A stretch of DNA of 64,000 nucleotides from Longimicrobiales bacterium (GCA_965249725.1 CBDFMQ010000002.1:2240001-2304000), one strand, 5' to 3'. Shown: positions 6,348-61,850, counted from the first letter of the stretch. Numbers and translations are program-made. The notes: a model not told the origin generated them from the sequence alone.

Positions 6348-7799
6348 TTGGGGTTGCTGGGAGTCGTCCTTTCGCTCCTCGCGCCTGTGCCGCTTGCCGC
6401 GCAGACCGCGCCCGCAGTCAGCGAGGCTCGCGTGGTGCTCCAGGCATCGGGCGACGAGCATACGATCGGTCTCCGGGGCCAGGGGCTCGACGCCTTCACC
6501 GAGGTCCGGATCGTCCCCGTCGACGGGCGGACCCGGCCCGACGGGATCAAGGCGGCGCTCGGTGCGCTCCAGCGAGATACGCGATCCCTGAGCTTCTCCA
6601 CCAGTCCCGGAGCCCCAGCGGGCGACTTTACGGTCCAACTCGTGACCAGCCGAGGCGACGCGGTCAAGATCGATTTCACACTGACCGTAGACGCCGTGGA
6701 TGCGCCACCCGAGGTTGCAGACATCGCCGCTCCGCGGTCGGTAGAGGCTGGCCAGAGACTCCGACTCAGCGTGACCGCTCTCGACGATCAGGCGTTGTCC
6801 GAGTTGAGGGTGGAGTGGGTCGGCGGGAGCACGGTAGTGCGCCTTCGCGGTGAGACGAAGGAGATCGGAGAGGTGGTCGTCGAAGGCCTCGCATCGGGGT
6901 CGCAGAGTCTCGAGGTCGTAGCGGTGGACCGCGCGGGCAACCTGAGCGACCCGGTGGCGGTGACCGTGATGGTCATGGCCGATCAGCCGCCAACGGTGGT
7001 CTCCGTCGACTCCCCGTCTGAGGTGACCGTGGGCGAAGATCTCACCGTGAGCGTGAGCGCCGACGACGACCTGGGGCTGGCCACCGTCCAGTTGGTGTGG
7101 GTGGGGGGCAGTGCCACCGCACCGGCCGCCGGGACAAGCGACACGGCGACCCTGGCGATCTCGGGGCTGTCCGCCGGCGTGCACGAGATGGTCGTGACCG
7201 CTGTAGACGCGGCCGGGAACACCAGCGACCCCATCACGGTCACGGTCGAATCTCTCGAGGTCGTCGCCCCCACCCTCGCCGGTCTGTCACTCTCGGGGGC
7301 CACGGTGGAGAGGACCCAGGCCTTCAGCGGGACCGTCACGCTCGATGTCCCCGCTCCCACAGACGTGACTGTCGCTCTTTCAGCGACGCCCCTCGTCACG
7401 GTGCCGAGCTCCGTTACGGTCATGGCCGGGGCACGGTCGGCTACGTTCGACGGTGTCGCCGGACCGGACGCGGGCGGCGCGGCCGTCACCGCGTCCTACG
7501 GGGACGACCAGCAGCAGGCGATCGTGGAGGTGCTCGCCACGACGCCGGCGTACGACCCCGTGGTCGTGCCGGCCGGGCTGTTCCAGTTCACGCTCGATCC
7601 GATAGTCGAGGCGGCATCGTTTGACCCCGTGGTCGTGCCGGCTGGGGTCTTCCAGTTCACGCTCGATCCGATAGTCGAGGCGGCATCGTTCGACCCGATC
7701 GTGATCCCCGTGGGCACCTTTCAGTTCACGCTCGATCCCAACGTCCCCGGAGGTGGTGATAGGCCGGACCAGCCGGACTACGACGGAGCGAACCCATGA
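6348..7799 (+). CDS. Secreted Ig-like domain protein with C-terminal repeats
   Basis: Signal peptide; two Ig-like units ending AVDxAGNxSDP; three C-terminal (Y/F)DPxVxPxGxFQFTLDP repeats. Confidence 0.8.
   Translation: MGLLGVVLSLLAPVPLAAQTAPAVSEARVVLQASGDEHTIGLRGQGLDAFTEVRIVPVDGRTRPDGIKAALGALQRDTRSLSFSTSPGAPAGDFTVQLVTSRGDAVKIDFTLTVDAVDAPPEVADIAAPRSVEAGQRLRLSVTALDDQALSELRVEWVGGSTVVRLRGETKEIGEVVVEGLASGSQSLEVVAVDRAGNLSDPVAVTVMVMADQPPTVVSVDSPSEVTVGEDLTVSVSADDDLGLATVQLVWVGGSATAPAAGTSDTATLAISGLSAGVHEMVVTAVDAAGNTSDPITVTVESLEVVAPTLAGLSLSGATVERTQAFSGTVTLDVPAPTDVTVALSATPLVTVPSSVTVMAGARSATFDGVAGPDAGGAAVTASYGDDQQQAIVEVLATTPAYDPVVVPAGLFQFTLDPIVEAASFDPVVVPAGVFQFTLDPIVEAASFDPIVIPVGTFQFTLDPNVPGGGDRPDQPDYDGANP
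7551..7740 (+). repeat. In-frame 69-bp tandem repeat, about 2.7 copies
   Basis: cagttcacgctcgatcc recurs three times at 69-bp spacing. Confidence 0.9.
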
Positions 7800-8470: not shown

Positions 8471-10597
8471 GTGGGCGCCGGCCCGAAGCACTCCGTGAAT
8501 CCGGTTTCGCACGGCCCCCTCCTCGTTGGCTCCGTCTCGAGGCTCACGGGTCGATTGGTCCCCGTCTGTTCCGTCCTTCTGATCTCGGCCTCGGCATTGT
8601 CCGCCCAAGACCTTACCGTCCGGACCAACCTCCCGTCCCAGGGTTTCCACGCGAGTGACGCTCCCATCGAGCTCACCTTCAGCCGCGTGCTCGATCCCGA
8701 AACCGAGAGCGTGGCAGTGTTCATAGGCGCGACCGACTTCACAGGGCTCTTCCGGCCGTCCGGCTCCGGCTTGCTCTTTACACCCAGGCTCGTCGAGCTA
8801 CCGTCTGGGAACAGCCCGTTCACCGTCTACCTCATCGACGCCACCGGCGTCTGGAACGAGATCGCGTCCGAGACGCTGAGGGTCGAAGGCGCTTTGGGCT
8901 TCCAGTCCCGGGACGTCACGCCCAAGGTGGACGTCTCGTTCAAGAGCCAGCCCTGGGAAGGGAAGGAACCCGATCCCGGTACCGATATTCCCGTGACAGG
9001 GGACGTGGAGACCAAGATCAGCTTCCAGGCCGAGCAGGTCCACTCAGGATTCACAGTTGGCTTCAACTCGCTCTTCCTGGGCTTCAACCACCAGGAGAAT
9101 GCGCTACGCTTCCGTGAAAAGAGCGGGGACGCCTCCAAGATCGACCTCTCGAGCTATGACCTGAAGTACGGATCCGAGAAACTCGACGTGTCGGTGGGTC
9201 ATGTCAGGACTGGCAATCAGCGCTACCTCATCAGCGGATTCGGCGCGCGTGGAGCCACCGCCACCCTGAAGCCCGTGTCCCGGGTCGAGGCGCAGGTGGC
9301 GGTGACGAACGGAAGCAGCATCGTGGGCTTCGACAACCTGGTCGGCCTGAACGACTCCGATCACCGCATGCTCAACGCGAGCTTGGGGGTGGAGGCACTC
9401 AAGACGCCGGGCCAGCTGCGGATGGAGTTCTCCTATCTCGACGCGTCGAAGCTGCCCCAGAACAACTTCAATCAGGGAGCGGTGAACGACGCCGAGAGGA
9501 GCGAAGGCTTCGGCTTCAATTTCAAGGCCAATGCGTTGGGGCGGCGCCTGCGCCTCGACGGGGGATTCTCGCGAAGCCGATTCGACAATCCCGACGATCC
9601 CACGCTGACTCAGGGCCAGGCCGTCGTAGCCGTGAGGGAGGAGACCAAGAACGCGCGCTACCTGAATGCCAACCTCGACGTCCTCAAGGGCGTGAAGCTG
9701 GGCGGGAGCAAGACGGCGCGGCTCTCGGTGGGGTACAAGCATCAGCGGGTCGATCCGCTCTACAAGAGCGTTGGGGCTTCGGCGCGGGCCGACCAGATCC
9801 AGAACCAGTACGACGTGAAGGCCGACGTGGCGGGGGTGGCGATCCAGGCCACGTTCTCCGACGCCAACGACAACCTGGACGAGCTCGCTTCCGTGTTGAA
9901 ATCGAATACCGAGCGGACGGGGCTCAACATCGGCGTGCCGCTCCCCAACATCTTCCGTGGCAAAGCCGGTGTGACGTGGCTACCCGCCCTGCAGTACCGC
10001 ATGCAGCGCACCCACCAGTTCGGCGAGGAGATTCCCGTCGACGGCGGGTTCAGCGCCGGGCACGTGCCCGATCAGCTGAGCACCAATCACACCGCCTCGG
10101 CCGGGTGGCGCTGGAGCAAGGTCAACTTCAGCTACCAGTTGAACTTCTCGAAGCAGGACAACCGTCAGGAGGGACGCGAAGACGCCGACCTCAACAACGC
10201 CAAGAGCGGGTTCTCCCTCGGCGTGAATCCCACGCGCAAGCTCTCGGTTACGCTCGACCTCGGCTTCGAGGAGGCGGAGAACCTCCAGCGCGACGAGATC
10301 GACAACACGCGCAGGTTCGGTGCCCGCGTCAACTGGAAGCCGATCCCGCGCTCGACCCTGGGAATCCAGTTCTCCGACACGTTCAAGGACGACCAGGCCG
10401 CCACGAAGGAACAGAGCGACAAACGTATCAACGTCAACTGGAGCGGCGCCGTACCCCGTACGGAGCGCTACAACGGTCAATACTTCATCCGTTACGCCCG
10501 CAACGTCTCGGAGCGTATGGACGTGACACGGAACACCGACGATCGCCGGGAGAACTGGACGATCAATACGGGCTTCAGCTTCAGCTTCGGGGGGTGA
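8471..10597 (+). CDS. Putative outer-membrane beta-barrel with N-terminal Ig-like domain
   Basis: Signal peptide, many amphipathic strands, C-terminal WTINTGFSFSF beta-signal. Confidence 0.75.
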   Translation: MGAGPKHSVNPVSHGPLLVGSVSRLTGRLVPVCSVLLISASALSAQDLTVRTNLPSQGFHASDAPIELTFSRVLDPETESVAVFIGATDFTGLFRPSGSGLLFTPRLVELPSGNSPFTVYLIDATGVWNEIASETLRVEGALGFQSRDVTPKVDVSFKSQPWEGKEPDPGTDIPVTGDVETKISFQAEQVHSGFTVGFNSLFLGFNHQENALRFREKSGDASKIDLSSYDLKYGSEKLDVSVGHVRTGNQRYLISGFGARGATATLKPVSRVEAQVAVTNGSSIVGFDNLVGLNDSDHRMLNASLGVEALKTPGQLRMEFSYLDASKLPQNNFNQGAVNDAERSEGFGFNFKANALGRRLRLDGGFSRSRFDNPDDPTLTQGQAVVAVREETKNARYLNANLDVLKGVKLGGSKTARLSVGYKHQRVDPLYKSVGASARADQIQNQYDVKADVAGVAIQATFSDANDNLDELASVLKSNTERTGLNIGVPLPNIFRGKAGVTWLPALQYRMQRTHQFGEEIPVDGGFSAGHVPDQLSTNHTASAGWRWSKVNFSYQLNFSKQDNRQEGREDADLNNAKSGFSLGVNPTRKLSVTLDLGFEEAENLQRDEIDNTRRFGARVNWKPIPRSTLGIQFSDTFKDDQAATKEQSDKRINVNWSGAVPRTERYNGQYFIRYARNVSERMDVTRNTDDRRENWTINTGFSFSFGG

Positions 10598-40361: not shown

Positions 40362-40573
40362 GGTCGTGGATAAGCTCCTGTGTGGTTGTCTTGCGTGTAT
40401 ACACTGCAACTCATCCGGCGCTTCGGCGGCTGCCGACTCCTTCCTCCGACAGCGTTCTCCCCGTGGGAGGCACGCGAACCCCCCGATAGCGAACCGGCCC
40501 GCAAGGCCGGCGAACCTGAGTGGCATATCCAACGGATATGTCTACGAGGGTTCGATGTAGATCACAGGCGAGA

Positions 40574-40593
40574 GCTTGAGTCAGGCGTTACGT
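40574..40593 (-). repeat. Truncated attC-like half site (family A), array end
   Basis: gcttgagtcaggcgtta identical to the end of the 44727-44868 element. Confidence 0.75.
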
Positions 40594-40683
40594 GACGTGA
40601 GTGCGGTCAAGGTACCGCGTCGGGGGCTCAGAGAACCGCGAGCAATCCGTCCAGAGACTCCGCCAGACTGCAGCAATCGCTTC

Positions 40684-41655: not shown

Positions 41656-41718
41656 CGTCCTGGGTCTCCTTCTTCAAGGGTCCGTCCAATCTGTGATTGT
41701 ACTTCGAAAACTCATGTC

Positions 41719-41861
41719 CGATAACGGGCTCACGGACTCAAGACGCGGAGGTGGCGAAGCCACCGGAGTGTCCGCGAAGCGGCCGGCCCGTTGCTCACGT
41801 TAGAGCTTCGCGCTCCAGAGCGACAGCGGACCCAGGGCCATGCGTGAGTCTGGCGTTATCG
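41719..41861 (-). repeat. attC-like element, family A
   Basis: CGATAACGGGCTCACGGACTCA...TGAGTCTGGCGTTATCG. Confidence 0.85.
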
Positions 41862-42691: not shown

Positions 42692-42835
42692 CGATAACGG
42701 GCTCACGGACTCACGACGCGGAGGTGGCGGAGCCACCGGAGTGTCCGCGAAGCGGCCGAGCCGCTGGTCATCGTAAGACCCGTCAGCCTACTCGCGAAAG
42801 CGAGCTGAGGCTCGAGCTTGAGTCCGGCGTTATGT
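42692..42835 (-). repeat. attC-like element, family A
   Basis: CGATAACGGGCTCAC...TGAGTCCGGCGTTATGT. Confidence 0.85.
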
Positions 42836-43014: not shown

Positions 43015-43764
43015 CTAGCTTATTAGCGAAAGCCCCCAGGACCTCATCGTGTCCGTGGTGCTAAGTCCTGCCGCCGCACCTACCAGTACGATCAGGCCGA
43101 CAAGACCTCCCAGGAGCACCCAAGGTGGTCGCCGCCGTATGATCCAGTCGCTCCCAATGACCGTGACGACCAAGGCGAGCATCGACAGGGGGAACCACAC
43201 GTCCATTGCGTTTTCGACGCCGGACCGCCGCCAGATGCGATCGATCGCCGGAAAGACGATAGTGATGGACGCCAACAGCATGAAATGCTTATGGATTTGA
43301 GGTGTCCGCCGGTAGTACGCCGCACTCCCCACAAAGATGGTGAATACCAACAGGAAGGCGATGTTCACGCAGAGGTCGAGCACGGCCTCCGCCATGAACG
43401 CCAGTGCCCGTTCAGGGCCCACCAGACCAACGAGGCGATGCGGGATGAACAGAAGTGTCGTAACTGCGCTTGCTACAACGACGGGGATGGCCAAAAGGAG
43501 CCCCGCAGCGCCGAGTCTTCGGTGCAGGTCTGGGCGACGCGACGCGATCAACAGCGTCTGCGTGAAGAACACGACAAACCAGGCCGTGAGAACCCCGCCG
43601 TGTACGTGTATGTAGAGGGGTAGCTCGGGTGTCTCGAAGAAGACCTTGAGAAAGAAGCTTGGTGAGAAGCCGACCAGGACGATCACGAGTAAGACACCGG
43701 CAGTCACCACAAAGAATCGATCGTACAGTTGTGCGCCACCCCACGAGCGTGTTCCGTTGCTCAA
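43015..43764 (-). CDS. Multi-TM membrane protein (cassette)
   Basis: About 7 TM helices; HVHG, LHRRLG, HKHFML. Confidence 0.8.
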   Translation of the reverse strand: MSNGTRSWGGAQLYDRFFVVTAGVLLVIVLVGFSPSFFLKVFFETPELPLYIHVHGGVLTAWFVVFFTQTLLIASRRPDLHRRLGAAGLLLAIPVVVASAVTTLLFIPHRLVGLVGPERALAFMAEAVLDLCVNIAFLLVFTIFVGSAAYYRRTPQIHKHFMLLASITIVFPAIDRIWRRSGVENAMDVWFPLSMLALVVTVIGSDWIIRRRPPWVLLGGLVGLIVLVGAAAGLSTTDTMRSWGLSLIS

Positions 43765-43861
43765 CCTTTGGAGTCCTGTGGCTTCGAGACTTCACACCAC
43801 GGTGTCAGAGTTATTAAGACCGTCTAGCTAAGTTAGTGATTGCACTTCAAAAACTCATGTC

Positions 43862-43980
43862 ATATAACGGGCTCACGGACTCACGACGCGGAGCAGAGCC
43901 ACCGGAGTGTCCGCGAAGCGGCCGAGCCGTTGGTCATCGTAAGACCCGAGCTGCCGGAGCGCGACAGCGCGGAGGCCCTG
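43862..43980 (-). repeat. attC-like element, family A, right end lost
   Basis: ATATAACGGGCTCACGGACTCA... with no closing GTTA. Confidence 0.75.
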
Positions 43981-44021
43981 CATCGAGACGGGATCAGGAC
44001 GGCATCGCTAGGCCATCGGTG

Positions 44022-44660
44022 TCAGTCTTCGCCGCCCGGGGTGGGACGGGCCTGGGATACAAACAACCCCGTCACGCCACCATGTACCAACACCGACAGC
44101 GCGACGTACATACCCGTCGGTCCGCTCTGGGTAATCGCGCCGACAGTGACTGAGGTGAGCAGTCCTGCGGCTACGCCGAGGGTGCTGCCAAGGAGCGCGC
44201 GGCCCGACGAAGGTGTGCCGTTGGCACGACGAGCGCCTGCGTGGGCGCCGATGGCGCCTCCGACCCACCCTCCGACTAGGTAGCCCAATGCTCCCCCAAC
44301 ATCGCAGTCATCGTAGCCGCAATCCGAGGTGAGTGACTGACCGATGAGGTAGCCCAGCGCCACGCCCGTTCCGGAGCCAATCACGCCTCCGAGCACCGCA
44401 GTGCTCCGCAAGCGACCTGAGACGGTGTCCTCCTGTGTCACCCGGGGCAGCCGACTCGGTAAGAGCGATTCACGACTACCCGCGCAGTTCGCCGAAGAGC
44501 CGGGCAGAGGTGTCACGAGCAGCGAGCCCGGTTCCGCCGAGCCCACGCGGGGGTTCGCTGGAGCGTTTCGGTCCAGTGAGCCAGTCGCGCATCCGGCTGC
44601 GAGGACGGCCGCCACAAGAGGTGGGAAACGGCAAGTCAGCATAGGCCCTCCAAGAACCAA
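44022..44660 (-). CDS. Hypothetical Gly-rich membrane lipoprotein (cassette)
   Basis: LAAGC lipobox; glycine-zipper-like helices. Confidence 0.6.
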   Translation of the reverse strand: MVLGGPMLTCRFPPLVAAVLAAGCATGSLDRNAPANPRVGSAEPGSLLVTPLPGSSANCAGSRESLLPSRLPRVTQEDTVSGRLRSTAVLGGVIGSGTGVALGYLIGQSLTSDCGYDDCDVGGALGYLVGGWVGGAIGAHAGARRANGTPSSGRALLGSTLGVAAGLLTSVTVGAITQSGPTGMYVALSVLVHGGVTGLFVSQARPTPGGED

Positions 44661-44726
44661 CGCGGTCGCTACGACCGATGGCGCTCGTCTTCAATAACTC
44701 GTGATGCTACTGCAAAAACTCATGTC

Positions 44727-44868
44727 ATGTAACGGGCTCACTGACTCACGACGCGGAGTGCCGAAGGCACGGAGTGTCCGCGAAGCGGCCGGCCTGCTGC
44801 TCACGTTAGAGCTTGTAGCCTACCAGCGACAGCGGCTCCGAGGGCCGTGCTTGAGTCAGGCGTTATAG
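44727..44868 (-). repeat. attC-like element, family A
   Basis: ATGTAACGGGCTCAC...TGAGTCAGGCGTTATAG. Confidence 0.85.
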
Positions 44869-45250: not shown

Positions 45251-45313
45251 TGGGACTTCCTCTGAGATGGTGATCGTCGTCCAACTAGTCGTTTAACTTC
45301 GAAAACTCATGTC

Positions 45314-45457
45314 CGATAACGGGCTCACTGACTCAAGACGCGGAGGTGGCGGAGCCACCGGAGTGTCCGCGAAGCGGCCGGCCCGCTGCTCACGTTAGAG
45401 CTTCCAGCTTCCCCGCGACAGCGGACCCGAGGGCCGTGCGTGAGTCTGGCGTTATGT
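45314..45457 (-). repeat. attC-like element, family A
   Basis: CGATAACGGGCTCAC...TGAGTCTGGCGTTATGT. Confidence 0.85.
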
Positions 45458-46231: not shown

Positions 46232-46380
46232 ACATAACGGGCTCACGCGCTCCCGGCGCGGAGTGCGCGCCAGCGAACGGAGTGCCCCGAAGGGACGGGC
46301 CCGTTGGTCTCCACGATAGTGTCACAACAGGTAATGCGCGAAGGCGCACCGGAGGGTCCGGCGGGAGAGCGGCGTTATAC
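46232..46380 (-). repeat. attC-like element, family B
   Basis: ACATAACGGGCTCACGCGCTCCCG...CGGGAGAGCGGCGTTATAC. Confidence 0.85.
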
Positions 46381-47451: not shown

Positions 47452-47469
47452 GTATAACGGATTTTATAC
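47452..47469 (-). repeat. 18-bp mini junction site
   Basis: GTATAAC-GGAT-TTTATAC. Confidence 0.8.
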
Positions 47470-47498
47470 GGCGTCGTTTCGCCACGCCCTCCGGGACG

Positions 47499-47993
47499 CT
47501 AGCAGGGCGTAGCGAGTAGAGTATTGAATTCCGAACGGAATTCGGGCGAAAACGTGCCCCTCGTGGCGCACCAGCGCGGTTGGTATTGCGGGAAGGTCAT
47601 GAAGCCCCGCCACGCCTCCCGTTGGGCGGCGAACTCAGCCTCGTCGTACAGCCCCCGGCGGTACTGGTAGTGCACGTTCTCGAAGTACCGAAACATCGCC
47701 ATGGTGCGGTGGTTGAGCTGGACGGAATCCGTCGGCGTCAACGCTTCCGCCCTGTTCGCTCGCCTCACCAAGTCGGCCAGTTCAGGGTTTGTGGCGCCGT
47801 CACTCATCAGGTCGACAATCTGGACGGCTATCTCGTTCCTTGTCTGAGCCTCCATCATCTCTCGATTCTGTGCGAGTTCGAACGCCACGAGGAGGATCCC
47901 AGCCAACACACCGACCTCTGTAACGATAGTCAGCCATCGATTCAGTCGATCATGCTTCGGTCGTGACTGGTTCATCGCCGCCCTCGGATTCAA
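47499..47993 (-). CDS. Hypothetical protein with N-terminal TM (cassette)
   Basis: GVLAGILLVAFELAQN; YFENVHYQYRRG. Confidence 0.75.
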   Translation of the reverse strand: MNPRAAMNQSRPKHDRLNRWLTIVTEVGVLAGILLVAFELAQNREMMEAQTRNEIAVQIVDLMSDGATNPELADLVRRANRAEALTPTDSVQLNHRTMAMFRYFENVHYQYRRGLYDEAEFAAQREAWRGFMTFPQYQPRWCATRGTFSPEFRSEFNTLLATPC

Positions 47994-48021
47994 CCGTTGG
48001 TTCTTCCTGCCTGCCGATGCC

Positions 48022-48165
48022 GTATAACGGGCTCACGCGCTCCCGACCGGAGCCGCATCGCGGCGTAGGTCCCGAAGGGACGGGCCCGTTGCCCTTCACG
48101 ATAGTGCCTGTCCGTCCATCCCGCGAAGCGGGTCCGAAGGGCCCGGCGGGAGAGCGGCGTTATAC
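48022..48165 (-). repeat. attC-like element, family B variant
   Basis: GTATAACGGGCTCACGCGCTCCCG...CGGGAGAGCGGCGTTATAC. Confidence 0.85.
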
Positions 48166-48230
48166 GATGCGCCGGATCGGTGACTTTAGTCGTCACTCTC
48201 AGTGGCAACCCAACCGGCGCGGGGTTGTAG

Positions 48231-48248
48231 TATGTCGAAATTGACATA
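48231..48248 (+). promoter_or_regulatory. Palindromic operator of TA operon containing TTGACA
   Basis: TATGTC-GAAATT-GACATA just upstream of the toxin ATG. Confidence 0.6.
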
Positions 48249-48257
48249 GTTTCCACC

Positions 48258-48596
48258 ATGAGTCCTGACGACAAGCCGATCGTATGGATTGCCGGTGAGG
48301 TGAAGACGCCGCCTTTCTCCGCAGAGGCGAGGATTGAGGTGGGCATGCTGTTGCGACGACTCCAGAGGGGAGATCGTCTCTCGATGCCGCACTCGCGGCC
48401 GATGACTTCAATTGGACGAGGGTGTCATGAACTCCGGGTTGTGGATGAGGGCGCAACGTGGCGCATCGTGTACTTCGTGGACTCGGATGCAGTGGTGATC
48501 CTCGACGTGTTTTCGAAGAAGACGCGGGCGACACCGAAGCGAGTGATGTCGATCTGTCAGGGACGTTTGAGAGACTACAAAGAGGCTAGGCGGTAA
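48258..48596 (+). CDS. RelE/HigB (Gp49-like) toxin
   Basis: MPHSRPM, CHELRV, WRIVY, FSKKTRATP. Confidence 0.9.
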   Translation: MSPDDKPIVWIAGEVKTPPFSAEARIEVGMLLRRLQRGDRLSMPHSRPMTSIGRGCHELRVVDEGATWRIVYFVDSDAVVILDVFSKKTRATPKRVMSICQGRLRDYKEARR

Positions 48597-48617
48597 GCGC
48601 CCGAGGGAGACGCGAGA

Positions 48618-48950
48618 ATGGACAAGGCCACAAAGAAGAGACTTGAGCGGGCGGGGTGGAGCACCGGTGACGCCAAAGACTTCCTCGAACTCTCAGAGGC
48701 GGAGGCGGCGTTCATCGACATGAAGTTGGCTTTGGCAGAAGACGTCCGAGCTCTGCGCCTAAACAGACACCTGAACCAGACACAGGTAGCGCGAATCCTC
48801 GGATCCAGTCAATCACGGGTCGCGAAGATGGAGGCGGCGGACTCGAGCGTGTCGATCGATCTCCTCATCCGGTCCCTCTTGAAGCTCGGAGCGAAGCGGA
48901 AGGATGTCGCGAAGGCGGTAGCACGGAAGAGGGTTGAGGCAGCAACCTGA
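48618..48950 (+). CDS. XRE-HTH antitoxin (HigA-like)
   Basis: QTQVARILGSSQSRVAKME. Confidence 0.9.
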   Translation: MDKATKKRLERAGWSTGDAKDFLELSEAEAAFIDMKLALAEDVRALRLNRHLNQTQVARILGSSQSRVAKMEAADSSVSIDLLIRSLLKLGAKRKDVAKAVARKRVEAAT

Positions 48951-48980
48951 GCCCTAACGCCAGGTTGAAGTAGGCGTGTC

Positions 48981-48998
48981 GTATAACGGATTTTATGC
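48981..48998 (-). repeat. 18-bp mini junction site
   Basis: GTATAAC-GGAT-TTTATGC. Confidence 0.8.
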
Positions 48999-49021
48999 GA
49001 TGGAGGCCGGACACTACGCCA

Positions 49022-49050
49022 TTGACGTATGTGCGCCAATGGCGCATAGT
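49022..49050 (+). promoter_or_regulatory. Promoter/operator of the next TA operon
   Basis: TTGACG followed by palindrome TGCGCCAATGGCGCA (49032-49046). Confidence 0.6.
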
Positions 49051-49054
49051 TGTG

Positions 49055-49373
49055 ATGGTCATCAAGGAAACCTCCGTGTTCACGAGGCAAGTCGATAAGC
49101 TGCTCGACAAGGAGTCCTTTCGACTCCTTCAGCTTCGGCTCGTGGAGAACCCTGAGGCAGGAGATCTGATCAGAGGCACCTGGAGGGCTCCGCAAGATCC
49201 GTTGGCAGGGCTCGGGCCGCAGTAAGCGCGGGGGAGTCCGAGTGATCTACTATTGGGCCCGCGAGGATGAAGTCGTTCTCCTCCTTCTCATGTATGGGAA
49301 GAACGAGCCGGGCGACCTCTCTCCCCAACAACGGACGATTCTGAAGCGCTTGGTGGAGGAAGAATTCTCATGA
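49055..49373 (+). pseudogene. HigB-2/RelE toxin, frameshifted
   Basis: MVIKETSVF...GDLIRGT, one extra base near 49181, then GGLRKIRW...KRGGVRVIYY. Confidence 0.85.
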
Positions 49374-49657
49374 ATGACGATCTATTCAATGAACTCGTAG
49401 CGAGTGTTGAGGAGGGCGGAGCCATTCTTCGAGGGGAGAAGGAGGCCTCTCGGACTCACGTCGTCGAGGATCCCGACGTCGCCGCGATTCGAGAGGGGTA
49501 CGGTCTCTCTCAGGCGAAGTTCGCCGCTCTCCTCGGAATCAGCGTGAGGACGCTCCAGAACTGGGAGCAAGGACGTCGCCATCCCCATGGACCCGCGCGA
49601 GTGCTACTTCGAGTTGCCGCTCGCCATCCCCGGGCGGTTCTTGAGACTGTTAAGTAG
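49370..49657 (+). CDS. HTH antitoxin (HigA/NadS-like)
   Basis: SQAKFAALLGISVRTLQNWEQGRR. Confidence 0.9.
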   Translation: MNDDLFNELVASVEEGGAILRGEKEASRTHVVEDPDVAAIREGYGLSQAKFAALLGISVRTLQNWEQGRRHPHGPARVLLRVAARHPRAVLETVK

Positions 49658-49691
49658 CGACTCCCACTCGCCACTCGTTCGTACCTCCGTC

Positions 49692-49840
49692 GCATAACGG
49701 GCTCTCGCGCTCCCGGCGCGGGCTGAGCGCCAGCGAACGGAGTGCCCCGAAGGGACGGGCCCGTTGGTCTTCACGATAGTGCCGCACCCGCTAATGCGCG
49801 AAGGCGCGCCGAAGGGTCCGGCGGGAGAGCGGCGTTAGCA
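49692..49840 (-). repeat. attC-like element, family B
   Basis: GCATAACGGGCTCTCGCG...GAGAGCGGCGTTAGCA. Confidence 0.85.
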
Positions 49841-49856
49841 GACGTGCCGGTCCATC

Positions 49857-50657
49857 TCACCACCTGTCGGTGCGGAAGGATGATGCTGGAAGCCCAGCGT
49901 TGTTGAAGAGAGAACCGACAATCCAATTCGTCCAGGCGTATCGGACGGCGGTAGGATTCGGAACAGCTTCACTTGAGACACGCAGGTTTCCACCGCCAAC
50001 GATGACGGCTTCGGCGGGATGGAACACCTTGTCTTCACCCGCCACAGTGAAACTGGTCAACTCGCGGCCGAAACTGGATAGGCCGTCGGGTGCGTGGTCG
50101 AACTCCAGGACGGCTGCACCCTCTTCGACCGTGGAGGACGTGCTCGACGTGCCCTTCGGCGCCATTGACAGCTCTTGGGGCGGTACGCCGCATCGACTTC
50201 GGCCAACGCGTTGGACTTCAGCGCTATCGGGCATGCGTTCATCATCGTTGCTGCGCAGGACGGGTTGGCTGGGGTAGCCTCTGAAGGGCATTTGCATGTT
50301 GGACTGGCCAGACATGAGCCAAACTTCACCGACGACGACATCTTGGAATCGAACGGTCTCGGTCGCGTCACCCGTCCGGGCTTGGACGGAGAGCTCACGA
50401 GGCTCAGCGCTGGCCTCGGGAGAATCGAGGCGGATCATCCATCTCCCGTCGGCCGCGGAGGTAGTCGAGTAGGACTGCCCGGCGAAACGCACGGTGACCT
50501 GGGCGCCCGCAGCGGCCCATCCCCAAACAGGATCTGGAGCGCCGCGCTGCAGAACCATATGGTCGGAGAAGATCGATGGGAGACGAAGTTGAGCGGAAGC
50601 AGGGGCCGGAAACAGAAGCGCGGCAAGGACCGATAGATAGGCTACTCGTCGTGGCAT
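49857..50657 (-). pseudogene. Sialate O-acetylesterase, internally deleted (cassette)
   Basis: FSDHMVLQR, GEVWLMSGQSNM and C-terminal VRYAW...GLPASSFRTD present; central catalytic region appears missing. Confidence 0.8.
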
Positions 50658-50703
50658 AGGTGTGCTCCGTCCTAACTCGCCATTGTGAAGCTCAAAGCAT
50701 GTC

Positions 50704-50852
50704 TGCTAACGGGCTCTCGCGCTCCCGGCGCGGGCTGAGCGCCAGCGAACGGAGTGCCCCGAAGGGACGGGCCCGTTGGTCTTCACGATAGTGCCGCACC
50801 CGCTAATGCGCGAAGGCGCGCCGAAGGGTCCGGCGGGAGAGCGGCGTTACGC
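50704..50852 (-). repeat. attC-like element, family B
   Basis: Internally identical to 49692-49840. Confidence 0.85.
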
Positions 50853-50865
50853 GGAGTCGCGCACC

Positions 50866-51090
50866 CTAGTGGTGGGCCAGGTTCCGCACGTGGAGAATCT
50901 CGCGGGCCTCAATCGGACGCAGATCAGCGCTCGAAAGAGTGACGACCGCCACCGTTCCACCTTCCCCGGAGACGAATTCGACCTCATAGGAGTCGTCGGC
51001 GTGCCGATGCACAATCGCCCCGACGTCGCCCACCTCGAGTCCGGCATCTGGAAGGTCCCGGCGCAGAACGACCGTATCGAGCTCTTTCAT
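50866..51090 (-). CDS. DUF4926 protein
   Basis: MKELDTVVL...GDVGAIVH...YEVEFV. Confidence 0.85.
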   Translation of the reverse strand: MKELDTVVLRRDLPDAGLEVGDVGAIVHRHADDSYEVEFVSGEGGTVAVVTLSSADLRPIEAREILHVRNLAHH

Positions 51091-51094
51091 ACCT

Positions 51095-51172
51095 CTATCT
51101 CCGCGTCGGGTAAGCGGTTACCAGTACAGGGACATCCTCACCCGTGACCATCCATACGGTGCCGAGGGACAC
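51095..51172 (-). pseudogene. DUF6883-like C-terminal remnant
   Basis: GTVWMV...PVLVTAYP immediately upstream of DUF4926. Confidence 0.6.
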
Positions 51173-51296
51173 GAATCAACACGTCCTGCTGTTTCCAGTC
51201 GCTGGCCAAGTCCTCTTCAGAAATCTCGGACGTGAGCGACGAGACTCGCTCTAGCGCCTGAAGCATGTGGGCCAGAAAGGCCCGGTCACGATTCAT
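51171..51296 (-). pseudogene. HEPN/HepT (DUF86) toxin, truncated
   Basis: MNRDRAFLAHMLQALERV...QQDVLIR then similarity breaks. Confidence 0.7.
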
Positions 51297-51573
51297 CGAA
51301 GACGACGACGGCCGAGCCGAGAATGGACTCGCGCATGAAGGGGCTGATACCCGGCTCCGTCAGTAGGTCAACCGGGCGCCTGAAGAATCTGGCCAATTCG
51401 TCTTCGGCGCGGATCAACTCGAAATAGCCGATGCCGCTTCCGAAATCCGCGATCAAATCAACGTCGGAATCGGAATGCTCCTCGCCCTTGGCCGCGGACC
51501 CAAACATCCGAAGCCTGACAATGGCATGGCGACGACAACACTCGGCGAGCCGATCTTGATCAAACTGAACCAT
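51286..51573 (-). CDS. MNT minimal nucleotidyltransferase antitoxin
   Basis: FGSAAKGE..SDSDVDL; RPVDL. Confidence 0.9.
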   Translation of the reverse strand: MVQFDQDRLAECCRRHAIVRLRMFGSAAKGEEHSDSDVDLIADFGSGIGYFELIRAEDELARFFRRPVDLLTEPGISPFMRESILGSAVVVFDES

Positions 51574-51634
51574 GTCGAAAGGTCTCTCCTAACAACCTCC
51601 AACGTCAATCGGCACCCCTCACAAGTGCTTTGTC

Positions 51635-51652
51635 CGATAACGGATTTTATGT
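51635..51652 (-). repeat. 18-bp mini junction site
   Basis: CGATAAC-GGAT-TTTATGT. Confidence 0.8.
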
Positions 51653-51721
51653 GACGCGCCGTTGGTGGACCTCATCAATAGCTACGAAACCCCAAAGGAC
51701 CTAAGGCAAATCGCGGTCTGC

Positions 51722-52537
51722 TCAGTCCCAGGCGACCACCTCGACCTCGGTCGGCTCGTCGAACCCCTTGAGACTGATGGAGCCGAGCGAAGTGAACGAG
51801 AGGCCCTTGCCCATGCACAGATCCCGGACGACTCGGGCGGCCAGTATCTGACCTGGCTCGGCGTGATCGCAGATGCGGGATGTGAGGTTGATTGTCGATC
51901 CGAACAATGCGTCGCCGTCGAGAACGGGCTCTCCTGCCCCGATGCCGATCTTCGCCCGCACGGGGATGCCGTCCGCGCCGTCAGAGGCATCCGCAGTCAG
52001 CTTGGCCTGAATCGTCATGGCGCAAGAGACTGCGGCGAAGGCCGACTCGAAGCTCGTCAGGAATCCGTCGCCCGCGCGGTCAACCTCCCGTCCACCGTGC
52101 TCGACTAAAGCTGCTCTCACCGTGTTCCGATAACGTCGCACGACTTCGAGAGCTGCAGCATCACCCAGTGTTCGAGTGATGTCCGTCGAGCGGACCATGT
52201 CGACGAAGAGGATCGCTCGAAAGGCACTCTCTCGAATCGGCTCCGAGTCGACGCTTTCGGGATCGGCGACCCGACCGAGGAAATGCGCGACAGTGGTTGG
52301 GTCGACCTCGATGACTTGGTGGGGAATCAGCCCGTGAGCTTCTCGATGCATCTCCCGGACGGCCTCCGCTGAGGGAGCCTCGACGAGGCAGAAGGCGGCT
52401 CCCCGAGGCTCGTCGTACCAGTAGGTGAGGGCCTTACAGGAGTGTCTGCCCTGCACCTTGACGTCCTGGTGATGGGCCGCCGCCACTTCCTCTGAGGTCA
52501 CGTCCCGAATGTCGTGTCGATCCATGAATAGCGGCAT
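51722..52537 (-). CDS. DUF4242 domain plus class III nucleotide cyclase (first cassette)
   Basis: MPLFMDRH, FCLVEAPS..HREAHG; ILFVDMVRST, AGDGF, INLTSRIC. Confidence 0.9.
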   Translation of the reverse strand: MPLFMDRHDIRDVTSEEVAAAHHQDVKVQGRHSCKALTYWYDEPRGAAFCLVEAPSAEAVREMHREAHGLIPHQVIEVDPTTVAHFLGRVADPESVDSEPIRESAFRAILFVDMVRSTDITRTLGDAAALEVVRRYRNTVRAALVEHGGREVDRAGDGFLTSFESAFAAVSCAMTIQAKLTADASDGADGIPVRAKIGIGAGEPVLDGDALFGSTINLTSRICDHAEPGQILAARVVRDLCMGKGLSFTSLGSISLKGFDEPTEVEVVAWD

Positions 52538-52631
52538 GCGTACGTTTCCTTCCGTGGGGTCCGGCCCAATAGGACGAATCGAGGCTCGCTCTGCGCTTCA
52601 CCCGCCAATTGTACTACCCGACAGGCGTGTC

Positions 52632-52702
52632 ATGTAACGGGCTCTTCACGAACCATATCAAGTTATCCGCCAAACGGCGACGTCATAACGTCTGACGTCG
52701 CC
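52632..52702 (-). other. Candidate attI-like insertion site
   Basis: ATGTAACGGGCTC at the first cassette boundary with no full element behind it; neighbouring IR GGCGACGTCA/TGACGTCGCC. Confidence 0.55.
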
Positions 52703-52761: not shown

Positions 52762-53380
52762 CTACTCCTCCCGCAACAGCCTATCTAGCGGGCTCTCTAC
52801 ATCCGTGGCCTCCCGGCGTGCGACGTGCGTATACAGCACGGTCGTCTTGATCTGACTGTGGCCGAGCAACTTCTGGATGTAGCGAAGGTCGGTTCCGGCC
52901 TCGAGGAGATGGGTGGCGAAGGAGTGCCGGAGCACATGAGGGGTGACGGGTCGGTCGATCCCGGCACGTTTGGCGGCGGCCGCCACTTGCCGTTGTACGG
53001 TCCGGGTCGTCAGGTGACGGTCGCGGCGGTGACCGGCCGGGAAGAGCCAGTCGTGAGGCCGTTCTACCGCAGCGTACTCGCGGAGCACCGCCAGCAGCAC
53101 AGCCGAGAGCATCACGTAGCGGTCCTTGCCTCCCTTCCCGTCGCGTACATGGATCATCATCCGATCGGAGTCGATGTCCGAGACCTTGAGGCGTACGACC
53201 TCACCCACACGGAGACCGCTCGCGTAGAGGACGAACGCGATGGCTATCAGTCCGCGCTTCCAGAAAACGCCTGGTGTGGGCCAGATAGAGTCGCTTCGTG
53301 CCGCGGGCGAACCCGCGAAGCGCCATCTCTTCCTTCATCCGAGAGAGCAACTCCTCGGAGTGAGCCGAGCGCCTAGGGTC
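52762..53380 (-). pseudogene. Tyrosine recombinase with SAM-like N-terminus, internal deletion/frameshift
   Basis: LLSRMKEEMALRGFARGTKRLY in one frame; LYASGLRVGE, GKGGKDR, HVLRHSFATH, LLGH, TTVLYTH in another. Confidence 0.9.
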
Positions 53381-53709
53381 TTTTGGATGGGGCATTCCCA
53401 ACGCTGCACTGGCCAGTCGGGCAACTCCATAGCGCCTCGGGTCCGGGTGGGAAGTCGGGCACCACTCCCCGACCGGCGACTACATCATCAAGGTCGCCGG
53501 CGGAAAGGATCTGATGAGCACTCGCACGCACGGGACGGCGTCCCTGTGGTCGGATAGCGACGCCGATCTTCGTGAGGTCTTGGATGGTGTCGACGCGCTT
53601 CTCGCGGACCTACGCCCGTAGACGAGGACGAAGGCGGACCCCAGCCCGAGGTCGGTATGCGATAGATCGACTAGCGCTGGCCGATCGGGCCCGCCAGTAG
53701 CGATCAGAT

Positions 53710-53898
53710 CGCCGAGCCCCCTCCCCCGCCGTCCAGTTTGCGCCAAGTAACCGGAGTTATTGCGGCCCCACGTGGGGTCCCGAGGCCCCATTCCCACCCC
53801 TAACTCACCGACGCCAAAAAGCCGGAAGCCCAGATCCCTCCTAGACTCCCGGCGAGTGAGCCGGGTGGGTCTCGAACCCACGACCTACGGATTAAAAG
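53710..53898. repeat. ~190-bp direct repeat copy 1 with tRNA-Lys(TTT) 3' fragment (53857-53898, minus)
   Basis: Minus strand CTTTTAATCCGTAGGTCGTGGGTTCGAGACCCACCCGGCTCA; copy 2 at 61660-61850. Confidence 0.85.
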
Positions 53899-61659: not shown

Positions 61660-61850
61660 CCCCCGAGTCCCCTCCCCCACCGACCAGTTCCAGACAGGTA
61701 ACCGGAGGTTTTGGGGCCCCATGTGGGGTCCCGTAGCCCCATTTCCGCCCCTAACTCACCAACACCAAAAAGCCGGAAGCCCAGATCCTTCCTAGACTTC
61801 CGGCGAATGAGCCGGGTGGGTCTCGAACCCACGACCTACGGATTAAAAGT
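61660..61850. repeat. ~190-bp direct repeat copy 2 with tRNA-Lys 3' fragment (61808-61850, minus)
   Basis: Aligns with 53710-53898; the 42-bp tRNA part is identical. Confidence 0.85.

Follow-up and report, generated by a model that had tools for sequence, protein, structure and literature searches.

The analyzed stretch, referred to here as the window, is 64,000 nt of the genome of a Longimicrobiales bacterium (GCA_965249725.1 CBDFMQ010000002.1:2240001-2304000; genome total 4,162,794 bases), and positions follow the numbering of the window unless another contig or locus is named. Between 40566 and 52645 there is an array of gene cassettes with nine attC-like elements (eight complete, one shortened) and two end fragments, and to its right lies a frameshifted gene for a Xer-like tyrosine recombinase. 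At three of the 13 junctions the usual long element is replaced by a very short palindromic sequence, termed here a mini site, and the nearest junction on each side of a mini site is always a full site or an end fragment. The anatomy, likely origin and significance of these mini sites are described below.

Three mini sites at cassette junctions

The 14-mer ATAACGGATTTTAT is present at 47454-47467, 48983-48996 and 51637-51650, always on the + strand, and allowing up to two mismatches adds no other copy in a scan of the window, where the chance expectation is 0.06 and three or more matches were seen in 0 of 100 shuffled sequences. Genome-wide, with at most one mismatch, only the three window copies are found. 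The 18 bp frames at 47452, 48981 and 51635 read as given in a preliminary description, with the form ATAAC-GGAT-TTTAT (ATAAA-ATCC-GTTAT on the minus strand), and each copy does occupy, as was also proposed there, the slot of an expected attC-like element of about 136–143 nt. All three share one plan on the minus strand, consisting of a 7-nt box ending in TAA, then AATCCG, then an arm that begins with TTA (Table 1). Longer readings of the three are ..GCCGTATAA AATCCG TTATACGGCAT.., ..CATCGCATAA AATCCG TTATACGACAC.. and ..CGTCACATAA AATCCG TTATCGGACAA.., and the end points are identical in each, TAA↓ and G↓TT (arrows mark end or crossover points). The core boxes on this strand are GTTATAC, GTTATAC and GTTATCG, with TTTAT as the + strand partner, and a core site of the form GTTRRRY is present at the cassette boundary. 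Both arms resemble those of the full sites of the array (type 1, see below), for example ACGCCGTATAA of the full site at 46235 and TTATCGGACA of that at 41722. The two arms within each mini site are complementary at 10, 7 and 8 of 14 positions (mini sites 1–3).

The inner 14-nt ends of 12 cassettes are complementary at 6–13 of 14 positions (mean 11.3), and the arms within one site match at 5–12 of 14 (mean 8.5; 11 sites). For the six cassettes adjoining the mini sites, five of which had been said to keep matched terminal repeats, the values are 13, 12, 12, 13, 6 and 11 of 14, in agreement with that count; the left arm of mini site 2 and the start of cassette D, for instance, agree at 13 of 14. 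Arms therefore co-vary with their cassettes at mini sites just as they do at full sites, which identifies the mini sites as real cassette boundaries. In the arms of 11 of the 12 cassettes a T stands opposite a G, a wobble pair that can form on the + strand only, and + strand hairpins are 1.3–3.6 kcal/mol more stable than their minus-strand counterparts. Together, these two features indicate that the array is read on the minus strand, and that the + strand is the folding 'bottom' strand. Eleven of the 18 cassette open reading frames (ORFs) scanned are on the minus strand, and the + strand carries three toxin-antitoxin pairs and one further ORF. In the cassette D toxin-like ORF, which is split by a frameshift, contigs from three of four runs have an extra A after 49193 that would undo the frameshift.

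The motif appears confined to this genome. The exact 14-mer ATAACGGATTTTAT has no match in 200 further family genomes, two of which belong to the same genus, and the 12-mer TAAAATCCGTTA gave two matches in 120 other family genomes against one for a control. Of these two, one is in AT-rich DNA and the other in ordinary sequence, and neither is at a cassette junction. A degenerate 20-mer retrieved eight loci from genome collections and ten from metagenomes, all of them single matches with no surrounding attC marks; none had type-2 marks, and one had a single type-1-like 8-mer 1.4 kb away. Junctions of the form TAA-N4-9-TTA in which 6 or more of 8 arm bases pair, a test that mini sites 1 and 2 pass when it is applied to the window, were absent from 405,067 bases in 24 related loci. 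Mini-like candidates in relatives (L059 3780/3795 and L063 1057) proved to lie in promoter-like regions rather than at junctions. The shorter palindrome ATAA-N6-TTAT occurs nine times in the genome (expectation 4.5), and the six copies outside the mini sites have a different centre and lie outside arrays. The suggestion of a defined site class, expected to be enriched at cassette junctions of related genomes, is not supported, as neither the motif nor any mini-like site turned up in the relatives and collections searched. The mini sites are real and non-random, and are specific to this lineage.

At the thresholds used, close homologues of the cassette A and F proteins were not found in four related genomes (only 25%-identical matches for F, and none for A). 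Within the related loci that were fetched, homologues were limited to proteins of cassettes B and H, and the B alignment was uninformative on mini site 3. A distant paralogue of the cassette F protein (27% identical) is encoded in the same genome, in a true-integron cassette with a full type-2 attC.

The complete sites of the array have the minus-strand pattern ..TAAC GCC...GAGCCC GTTA.. and divide into subtypes 1a and 1b. The hairpin calculated for one of them has an energy of -42.8 / -42.4 kcal/mol (z about -2.7). Since the shortened site at 43862 is without its R'' half, the cassettes with ORFs 44022-44660 and 43015-43764 have become fused. The damaged sites at 43862, 40566 and 52628 have a different end point in each case, and beyond the last of these is a decayed copy of an attI-like region known from relatives. 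At type-1a junctions, about 25 bases past the R' box are conserved (minus strand, GTTATCGGACATGAGTTTTCGAAGT...) and open cassettes that are otherwise unrelated; this flank could serve as a common leader or as a promoter, or could belong to the site as its outer portion. In a congener (genome G035, locus L060, about 8820-8870) there is a type-1 site of only about 45 nt, GTAAC GCCGCTCTCC GCGC GGGAGCGCGTGAGCCC GTTAG, in which the R and L parts are kept, so the centre of a type-1 site can be lost naturally without loss of its boxes. An Rfam scan of 39000-64000 (E-values up to 1) matched nothing, and ARAGORN detected no tRNA genes in the window.

Table 1. Sites, cassettes and recombinase genes of the mini-site array, with homologous genes of related loci
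Feature	Position	Strand	Remarks
Mini site 1	47452..47469	-	CCGTATAA AATCCG TTATACGG; cassette F 3' end, joined to cassette G
Mini site 2	48981..48998	-	TCGCATAA AATCCG TTATACGA; cassette D 3' end, joined to cassette E
Mini site 3	51635..51652	-	TCACATAA AATCCG TTATCGGA; cassette A 3' end, joined to cassette B
Cassette F (with mini site 1)	47458..48027	-	164-aa ORF 47499-47993
Cassette D (with mini site 2)	48987..49697	-	Reverse-oriented toxin-antitoxin pair on + strand
Cassette D genes	48995-49225; 49370-49657	+	Frameshifted toxin-like ORF; helix-turn-helix antitoxin
Cassette A (with mini site 3)	51641..52637	-	271-aa ORF 51722-52537; SCO4226-like and adenylate/guanylate cyclase domains
Complete type-1 sites, first four	~41719-41861, 42692-42835, 44727-44868, 45314-45457	-	136–143 nt from TAAC to GTTA
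Complete type-1 sites, last four	~46232-46380, 48022-48165, 49692-49840, 50704-50852	-	136–143 nt from TAAC to GTTA
Shortened type-1 site	43862-43990	-	Without R'' half in minus-strand reading
Left-end type-1 fragment	40566..40612	-	Adjoins LicD-family gene
Right-end fragment	52628..52645	-	Reads GAAGAGCCCG↓TTACATGAC
Type-1a conserved flanks	41693-41750, 43836-43893, 44701-44758, 45288-45345
Xer-like tyrosine recombinase, frameshifted	52762..53480	-	Frames 52762-53334 and 53201-53479; 3' end faces array
Intact recombinase homologues	L060 9615-10451; L057 12995-13780; L067 4502-5275		3' end faces co-directional array

Source of the central six bases and a proposed origin

The centre of the mini sites cannot simply be taken from the sites around them. 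A type-1 sequence (TAAC GCC ... GAGCCC GTTA) yields TAA-AATCC-GTTA only with three extra bases, and the centre is for this reason not of type-1 origin. The same genome carries a second site family, type 2, with elements of about 95 nt (..CTAAC AAGCGATTGC ... GAATCGC AATCC GTTAG..) that occur in many small clusters, one of which is the array behind the only true IntI of the genome, 1.26 Mb from the window. AATCCG constitutes the last six bases before the crossover in type-2 sites, and the 28 genomic copies of AATCCGTTA comprise 21 type-2 attC ends, the three mini sites, one ambiguous case and three elsewhere. A mini site corresponds to a type-2 site minus one block, from after TAA to before AATCC, with no filler base; alternatively, it can be described as a type-1 R'' arm followed by the final six bases of a type-2 site. 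The two families adjoin in mixed arrays 13 kb past the end of the window. At one junction there (L012 13090-13265), the last bases of a type-1 site stand beside an oppositely directed type-2 attC, in what looks like a scar of array rearrangement. A 77-nt element is tandemly duplicated in the same locus (L012 5529-5682), and the cassette array of the true integron is interrupted, as read by eye, by transposase-like ORFs at L011 2440-3900 and 5330-6560.

The closest published parallel is provided by the delta-attI 'unusual' cassettes, which are described as having 14–18 nt in place of attC, with the consensus sequences AAACAAAGTTRRRY and AATAAAATGTTRRRY, in 96 of 1,685 class 1 and 14 of 57 class 2 integrons (PMC12901181). 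According to the sections of that paper used here, excision of such cassettes by IntI1 ranges from 4 to 28%, or 20/80% for one construct, and their insertion rates resemble those of canonical cassettes. Those sections cite a proposal by Partridge, in which a crossover between the attI1 L box and the attC R'' produces a delta-attI cassette in one step, and still term the origin of the sites unknown (PMC12901181). The mini sites have in common with them a remnant of about 14–18 nt that takes the place of attC where a cassette within an array has its 3' end, a box with AA as its last bases, followed by about 6 nt ending in G and then TTRRRY, and a proposed crossover at the attC R'' and the L side of a double-strand simple site. 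Where 8–12 nt before G↓TT replace attC in delta-attI cassettes, ten bases, ATAAAATCCG, precede ↓TT in the mini sites, and they lie downstream of the ORFs in cassettes A, D and F. There are also clear differences. The six bases of the mini sites match the end of a co-resident attC family and no attI among the regions sampled, the array is chromosomal, in an environmental bacterium and with no IntI nearby, and there are three such sites in one array, with arms that reach about 14 nt.

The likeness to the attI1 simple site (CCCTAAA, spacer, GTTRRRY) that had been noticed earlier is upheld by the shared layout, a 7-nt box ending in TAA, 6 nt and then TTA, and it extends to the delta-attI sites. 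In both cases inverse boxes surround 6 nt that end at G↓TT. The mini sites differ from attI1 in having neither an adjacent integrase gene nor DR1/DR2 repeats, and in having two R-type, nearly symmetrical arms. At that site, IntI1 is reported to be able to exchange both strands, and in recombination between two attI1 sites the second exchange, on the top strand, was mapped between two adenines of the L-box AAC (PMC4792948, in the parts concerned with attI1). By our own derivation, this second exchange would fall on the sequence as CCCTAAA, ACAAAG and then TT, that is, 6 nt from G↓TT.

With canonical attC sites the mini sites share R''-like and R'-like end boxes at cassette boundaries and the G↓TT of the minus strand. 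Canonical sites have a stated whole-site length of 57–141 bp (PMC12901181), whereas an entire mini site measures 14–22 nt, with 4–6 nt between the boxes and no L boxes, extrahelical bases or variable stem; the only structure it can fold into is a stem of the R boxes closed by a 6-nt loop.

Given the match in geometry to the published delta-attI cassettes, our preferred reading is that the mini sites are hybrid simple sites of this kind, which replaced the attC of cassettes A, D and F, and we put its probability at roughly one in two. The anatomy of the sites, the 6-bp identity with type-2 sites, the resemblance of the arms to type 1 and the complementarity of the cassette ends are all observed. 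An attC-derived centre, rather than one derived from attI, is best read as a new feature relative to delta-attI sites. In such an event, a tyrosine recombinase would cross over at two points 6 bp apart and not solely at G↓TT. The first would fall within the type-1 site that the cassette itself carries, in its R'' box (TAA↓C). The second would fall in a type-2 attC (..AATCGC↓AATCCG↓TTA..) located just upstream or downstream of the cassette, on the left border of the six bases that lead up to G↓TT. This would remove the entire hairpin-forming centre and leave a 14-6-14 palindrome, by the route that Partridge suggested for delta-attI cassettes. We infer that the enzyme was probably the IntI of this genome, acting on non-cognate type-1 cassettes. 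As to the order of events, the cassette may have been excised as a circle and later re-inserted by a normal G↓TT crossover, or the deletion may have taken place in situ, and either route would yield the observed junction as well as the complementary ends of the cassettes. That the array holds three such events might reflect IntI acting on type-1 cassettes after their own recombinase had decayed; alternatively, there may have been a chain in which the first mini site donated to the next. Because the two families of parental sites are distinguishable, both crossover positions (TAA↓ and G↓TT, 6 bp apart) are readable from the sequence.

Several observations weigh against a hybrid origin. The reciprocal product, a type-2 left half joined to a type-1 body, was found nowhere in the genome using a specific pattern, and a looser pattern gave eight genomic matches, none in an attC context. 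The edge of the type-2 L' box was assigned by eye, and for one type-2 site the minimum-energy fold is not a simple hairpin (z 0.0 and -0.6 versus shuffles). In support of the reading, four of the six mini-site arms favour type 1 over type 2 by +6.1 to +10.8 bits, two are ambiguous (-1.9 and +1.0) and the best-scoring type-2 arm reaches 0.1, but these log-odds were scored in-sample, with about six chance matches contaminating the type-1 set. Among attC sites, L-box recombination accounts for only 1 of 607 and 3 of 642 recombinants in the experiments excerpted from PMC4792948. Three events here and none in 405,067 related bases would need a special circumstance or a chain reaction. Finally, contigs of four runs have no joint at a mini site, and so give no sign of present use.

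Activity today can be considered from folding and from the contigs. Hairpins of the mini sites in situ are weak and without a T run (-7.8 kcal/mol for site 1 and -5.2 for site 2), and the minimum-energy fold at site 3, with a figure of -4.2 kcal/mol, does not include the R-box hairpin. In the circular form of the cassettes, the arms form stems of 13–14 bp with energies of -11.3, -13.4 and -9.8 kcal/mol on the + strand. Lacking an L box and extrahelical bases, the mini sites are expected to be poor or inert in the folded single-strand pathway, and they could still be usable as attI-like double-strand sites. Contigs from four studies span mini sites 1 and 2 unchanged (in one piece in three of four runs) and mini site 3 unchanged in all four. 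All contig joints fall between full sites, which are 75–88% alike, and may represent assembly ambiguity. As contigs hide rare variants, their unchanged state neither shows nor excludes activity at the mini sites, and any activity at present would be inferred.

Competing explanations

It is unlikely that the mini sites are deletion relics, in which a type-2 attC lost its hairpin centre without an integrase, by hairpin cleavage and rejoining or by replication slippage, either once with later spread or three times. The subtraction of one continuous block from a type-2 site would account for the sequence, the distant paralogue of the cassette F protein in the true integron does have a full type-2 attC, and natural shortening is known, as in the congener site of about 45 nt that kept its R and L parts. 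The array also contains truncated sites, but these have other end points (43862, 40566 and 52628), while the mini sites have the same end points on three unrelated cassettes with different, mostly type-1-like arms. The joint shows no microhomology, and ATAACAATCCGTTAT, the product expected from slippage of the AA repeats that flank the type-2 stem, is one base off the observed sequence. Identical end points and the lack of microhomology disfavour plain deletion, and, together with arms that co-vary with the neighbouring cassettes, agree with the earlier view that the sites did not arise by random deletion. Even a single origin would still need an R''-side crossover to put one centre on three unrelated cassettes.

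Similarly improbable is that the mini sites are working double-strand core sites of a Xer-like recombinase family or of the host XerCD, and thereby form a separate type of site related in kind to dif or pdif. Their geometry fits classical sites, and the three identical overlaps are what strand exchange requires. The stems of the circular form (-11.3, -13.4 and -9.8 kcal/mol) are stronger than those in situ, and the recombinase family found beside type-1 arrays does not have the insert that IntI uses for folded attC. Modules bounded by pdif sites often carry toxin-antitoxin genes. Xer core sites consist of two inverted arms of about 11 bp and a 6-bp centre between them, conserved from site to site. 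As in dif and pdif, inverted arms ending in ATAA / TTAT surround 6 bp, and there is a resemblance between the arms of the mini sites and the XerC-side arm of the dif-like sequence on contig 3 at 914794 (ACTTAACATAA TATATA TTATACGAACT), which is a candidate for the chromosomal dif; a second dif-like site is present at 78464 (GTGCGTATAA CCAGTA TTATGTAAAG). The likeness to the former is limited to ..CGTATAA / TTATG... The three mini sites agree exactly in their 7-6-7 core and vary in the outer bases of the arms. These outer arms are cassette-specific, and the mini sites, all oriented alike, sit inside an array of the attC type, unlike dif and pdif. Moreover, mini-like sites are absent behind intact members of the recombinase family and at other loci (0 in 405,067 bases of 24 loci), the neighbouring recombinase gene is frameshifted here, the overlap belongs to the IntI-linked type-2 family and not to type 1, the mini sites carry no contig joints, and the conserved T·G pair of the arms favours + strand folding, which points to single-strand folding.

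Somewhat more doubtful again is a true delta-attI footprint, with the six bases coming from an unsampled attI that belonged to a platform of type 1 or of another kind, which would be an exact counterpart of the unusual cassettes of class 1 and 2 integrons. At its right end the array has a decayed platform, whose original attI can no longer be read. In the attI region of the genome's own integron the sequence is ..AAGTTATTAG↓TTAGG.., and in that of a congener ..CAATTAGTAG↓TTAGG.., while ..GGGG(CC/AA)G↓TTA.. is the sequence at the attI-like junctions of two intact type-1 platforms associated with the neighbouring recombinase family. AATCCG is absent from all four, and no attI region sampled is identical to the remnant. 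An attI-derived footprint, as originally suggested, is accordingly unsupported within the genus, and the centre matches type-2 attC ends instead. Furthermore, the two family matches to TAAAATCCGTTA, compared with one for the control, are both outside arrays.

An operator, a terminator or a chance palindrome is very improbable: some of the nine genomic ATAA-N6-TTAT palindromes are in promoter-like regions, but the three exact copies are confined to cassette junctions, the count compares with an expectation of 4.5 and the other six have a different centre, the hairpins are weak with no T run, and the toxin-antitoxin cassette D has an internal promoter-like region of its own.

The neighbouring recombinase family and wider significance

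The recombinase encoded at 52762-53480 and the genome's IntI share 32% identity, and about 41 aligned residues are missing from the former at the position of the IntI-specific insert. Its profile scores are below the cut-offs (given in brackets) for both XerA_Arch, 168.5 (220), and the integron integrase TIGR02249, 163.7 (265). The only IntI to exceed the latter is that on contig 3 (1028977-1029906), with 335 bits and with its gene at L011 8960-10009, and an insert-bearing IntI beside the mini-site array, as in a complete integron, is absent. Further to the right of the recombinase gene is a 187-nt direct repeat (53712-53898 and 61663-61849, 89% identical, 7,951 bases apart), the two copies of which may be the ends of an inserted element. 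Elsewhere in the window, three tandem 69-nt repeats occur at 7549-7755 inside a long ORF, the second and third being 93% and 62% identical to the first.

Intact homologues of the recombinase with the same layout are present in three genomes of three genera and are 53–100% identical among themselves. The arrays behind them are of type 1 in two genomes and of a third site family in the other. At E-values up to 1e-70, homologues were detected in 33 of 100 other family genomes (36 matches). Of 33 matches not yet studied, 20 were fetched (L068-L087), the 13 omitted being mostly at contig ends without downstream DNA. Eight of the ten fetched loci with at least 4.7 kb downstream have 6–10 repeated blocks spaced about 0.4–1.5 kb apart, most of them about 120–250 nt and a few longer, and no locus has more than two repeat clusters upstream. 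Nine of the other ten loci end 335–1,390 bases past the gene, as repeat arrays would cause, and the tenth has 2.6 kb downstream in which no repeat was found. Two hairpin-based attC detectors gave 14 sites downstream versus 2 upstream, and 7 versus 1, but both are insensitive; of the known L057 and L060 sites, the first found none and the second one each. Repeat clustering was therefore relied upon for the downstream arrays.

On sequence grounds, this family of about 290-aa, insert-less, Xer-like proteins and the co-directional attC-like arrays that follow their genes may represent an integron-like platform with a non-IntI integrase. Cury et al., in the part of that study dealing with proteins between IntI and Xer, reported that very few sites lie close to such genes (for four proteins, fewer than three), and the association seen here looks stronger. 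A limited literature search found no published description of such a recombinase-array association. It is conceivable, though doubtful, that the array belongs to an integron-like system of this kind rather than to a decayed classical integron, with the mini sites as footprints, and possibly substrates, of two-strand exchange. If so, it would stand, as a living system, midway between Xer/dif recombination and the capture of cassettes by integrons, and the 14-6-14 mini site would be the bare double-strand core, and the 140-nt sites a core with an inserted hairpin.

Under the preferred reading, that of hybrid simple sites, the mini sites would be field evidence for second-strand (L-side/R''-side) exchange, which has otherwise been mapped solely in laboratory attI1 x attI1 recombination. 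Simple sites that replace attC were previously catalogued in class 1 and class 2 resistance integrons, and here there are three instances on a chromosome. In practice, the mini sites hold the cassettes of the pairs A+B, D+E and F+G together as units with full sites at their borders, which suggests how cassettes get welded into co-moving pairs. A widespread insert-less recombinase family heading attC-like arrays bears on the evolution of integron integrases from Xer-type enzymes, and may outweigh the finding of the mini sites themselves.

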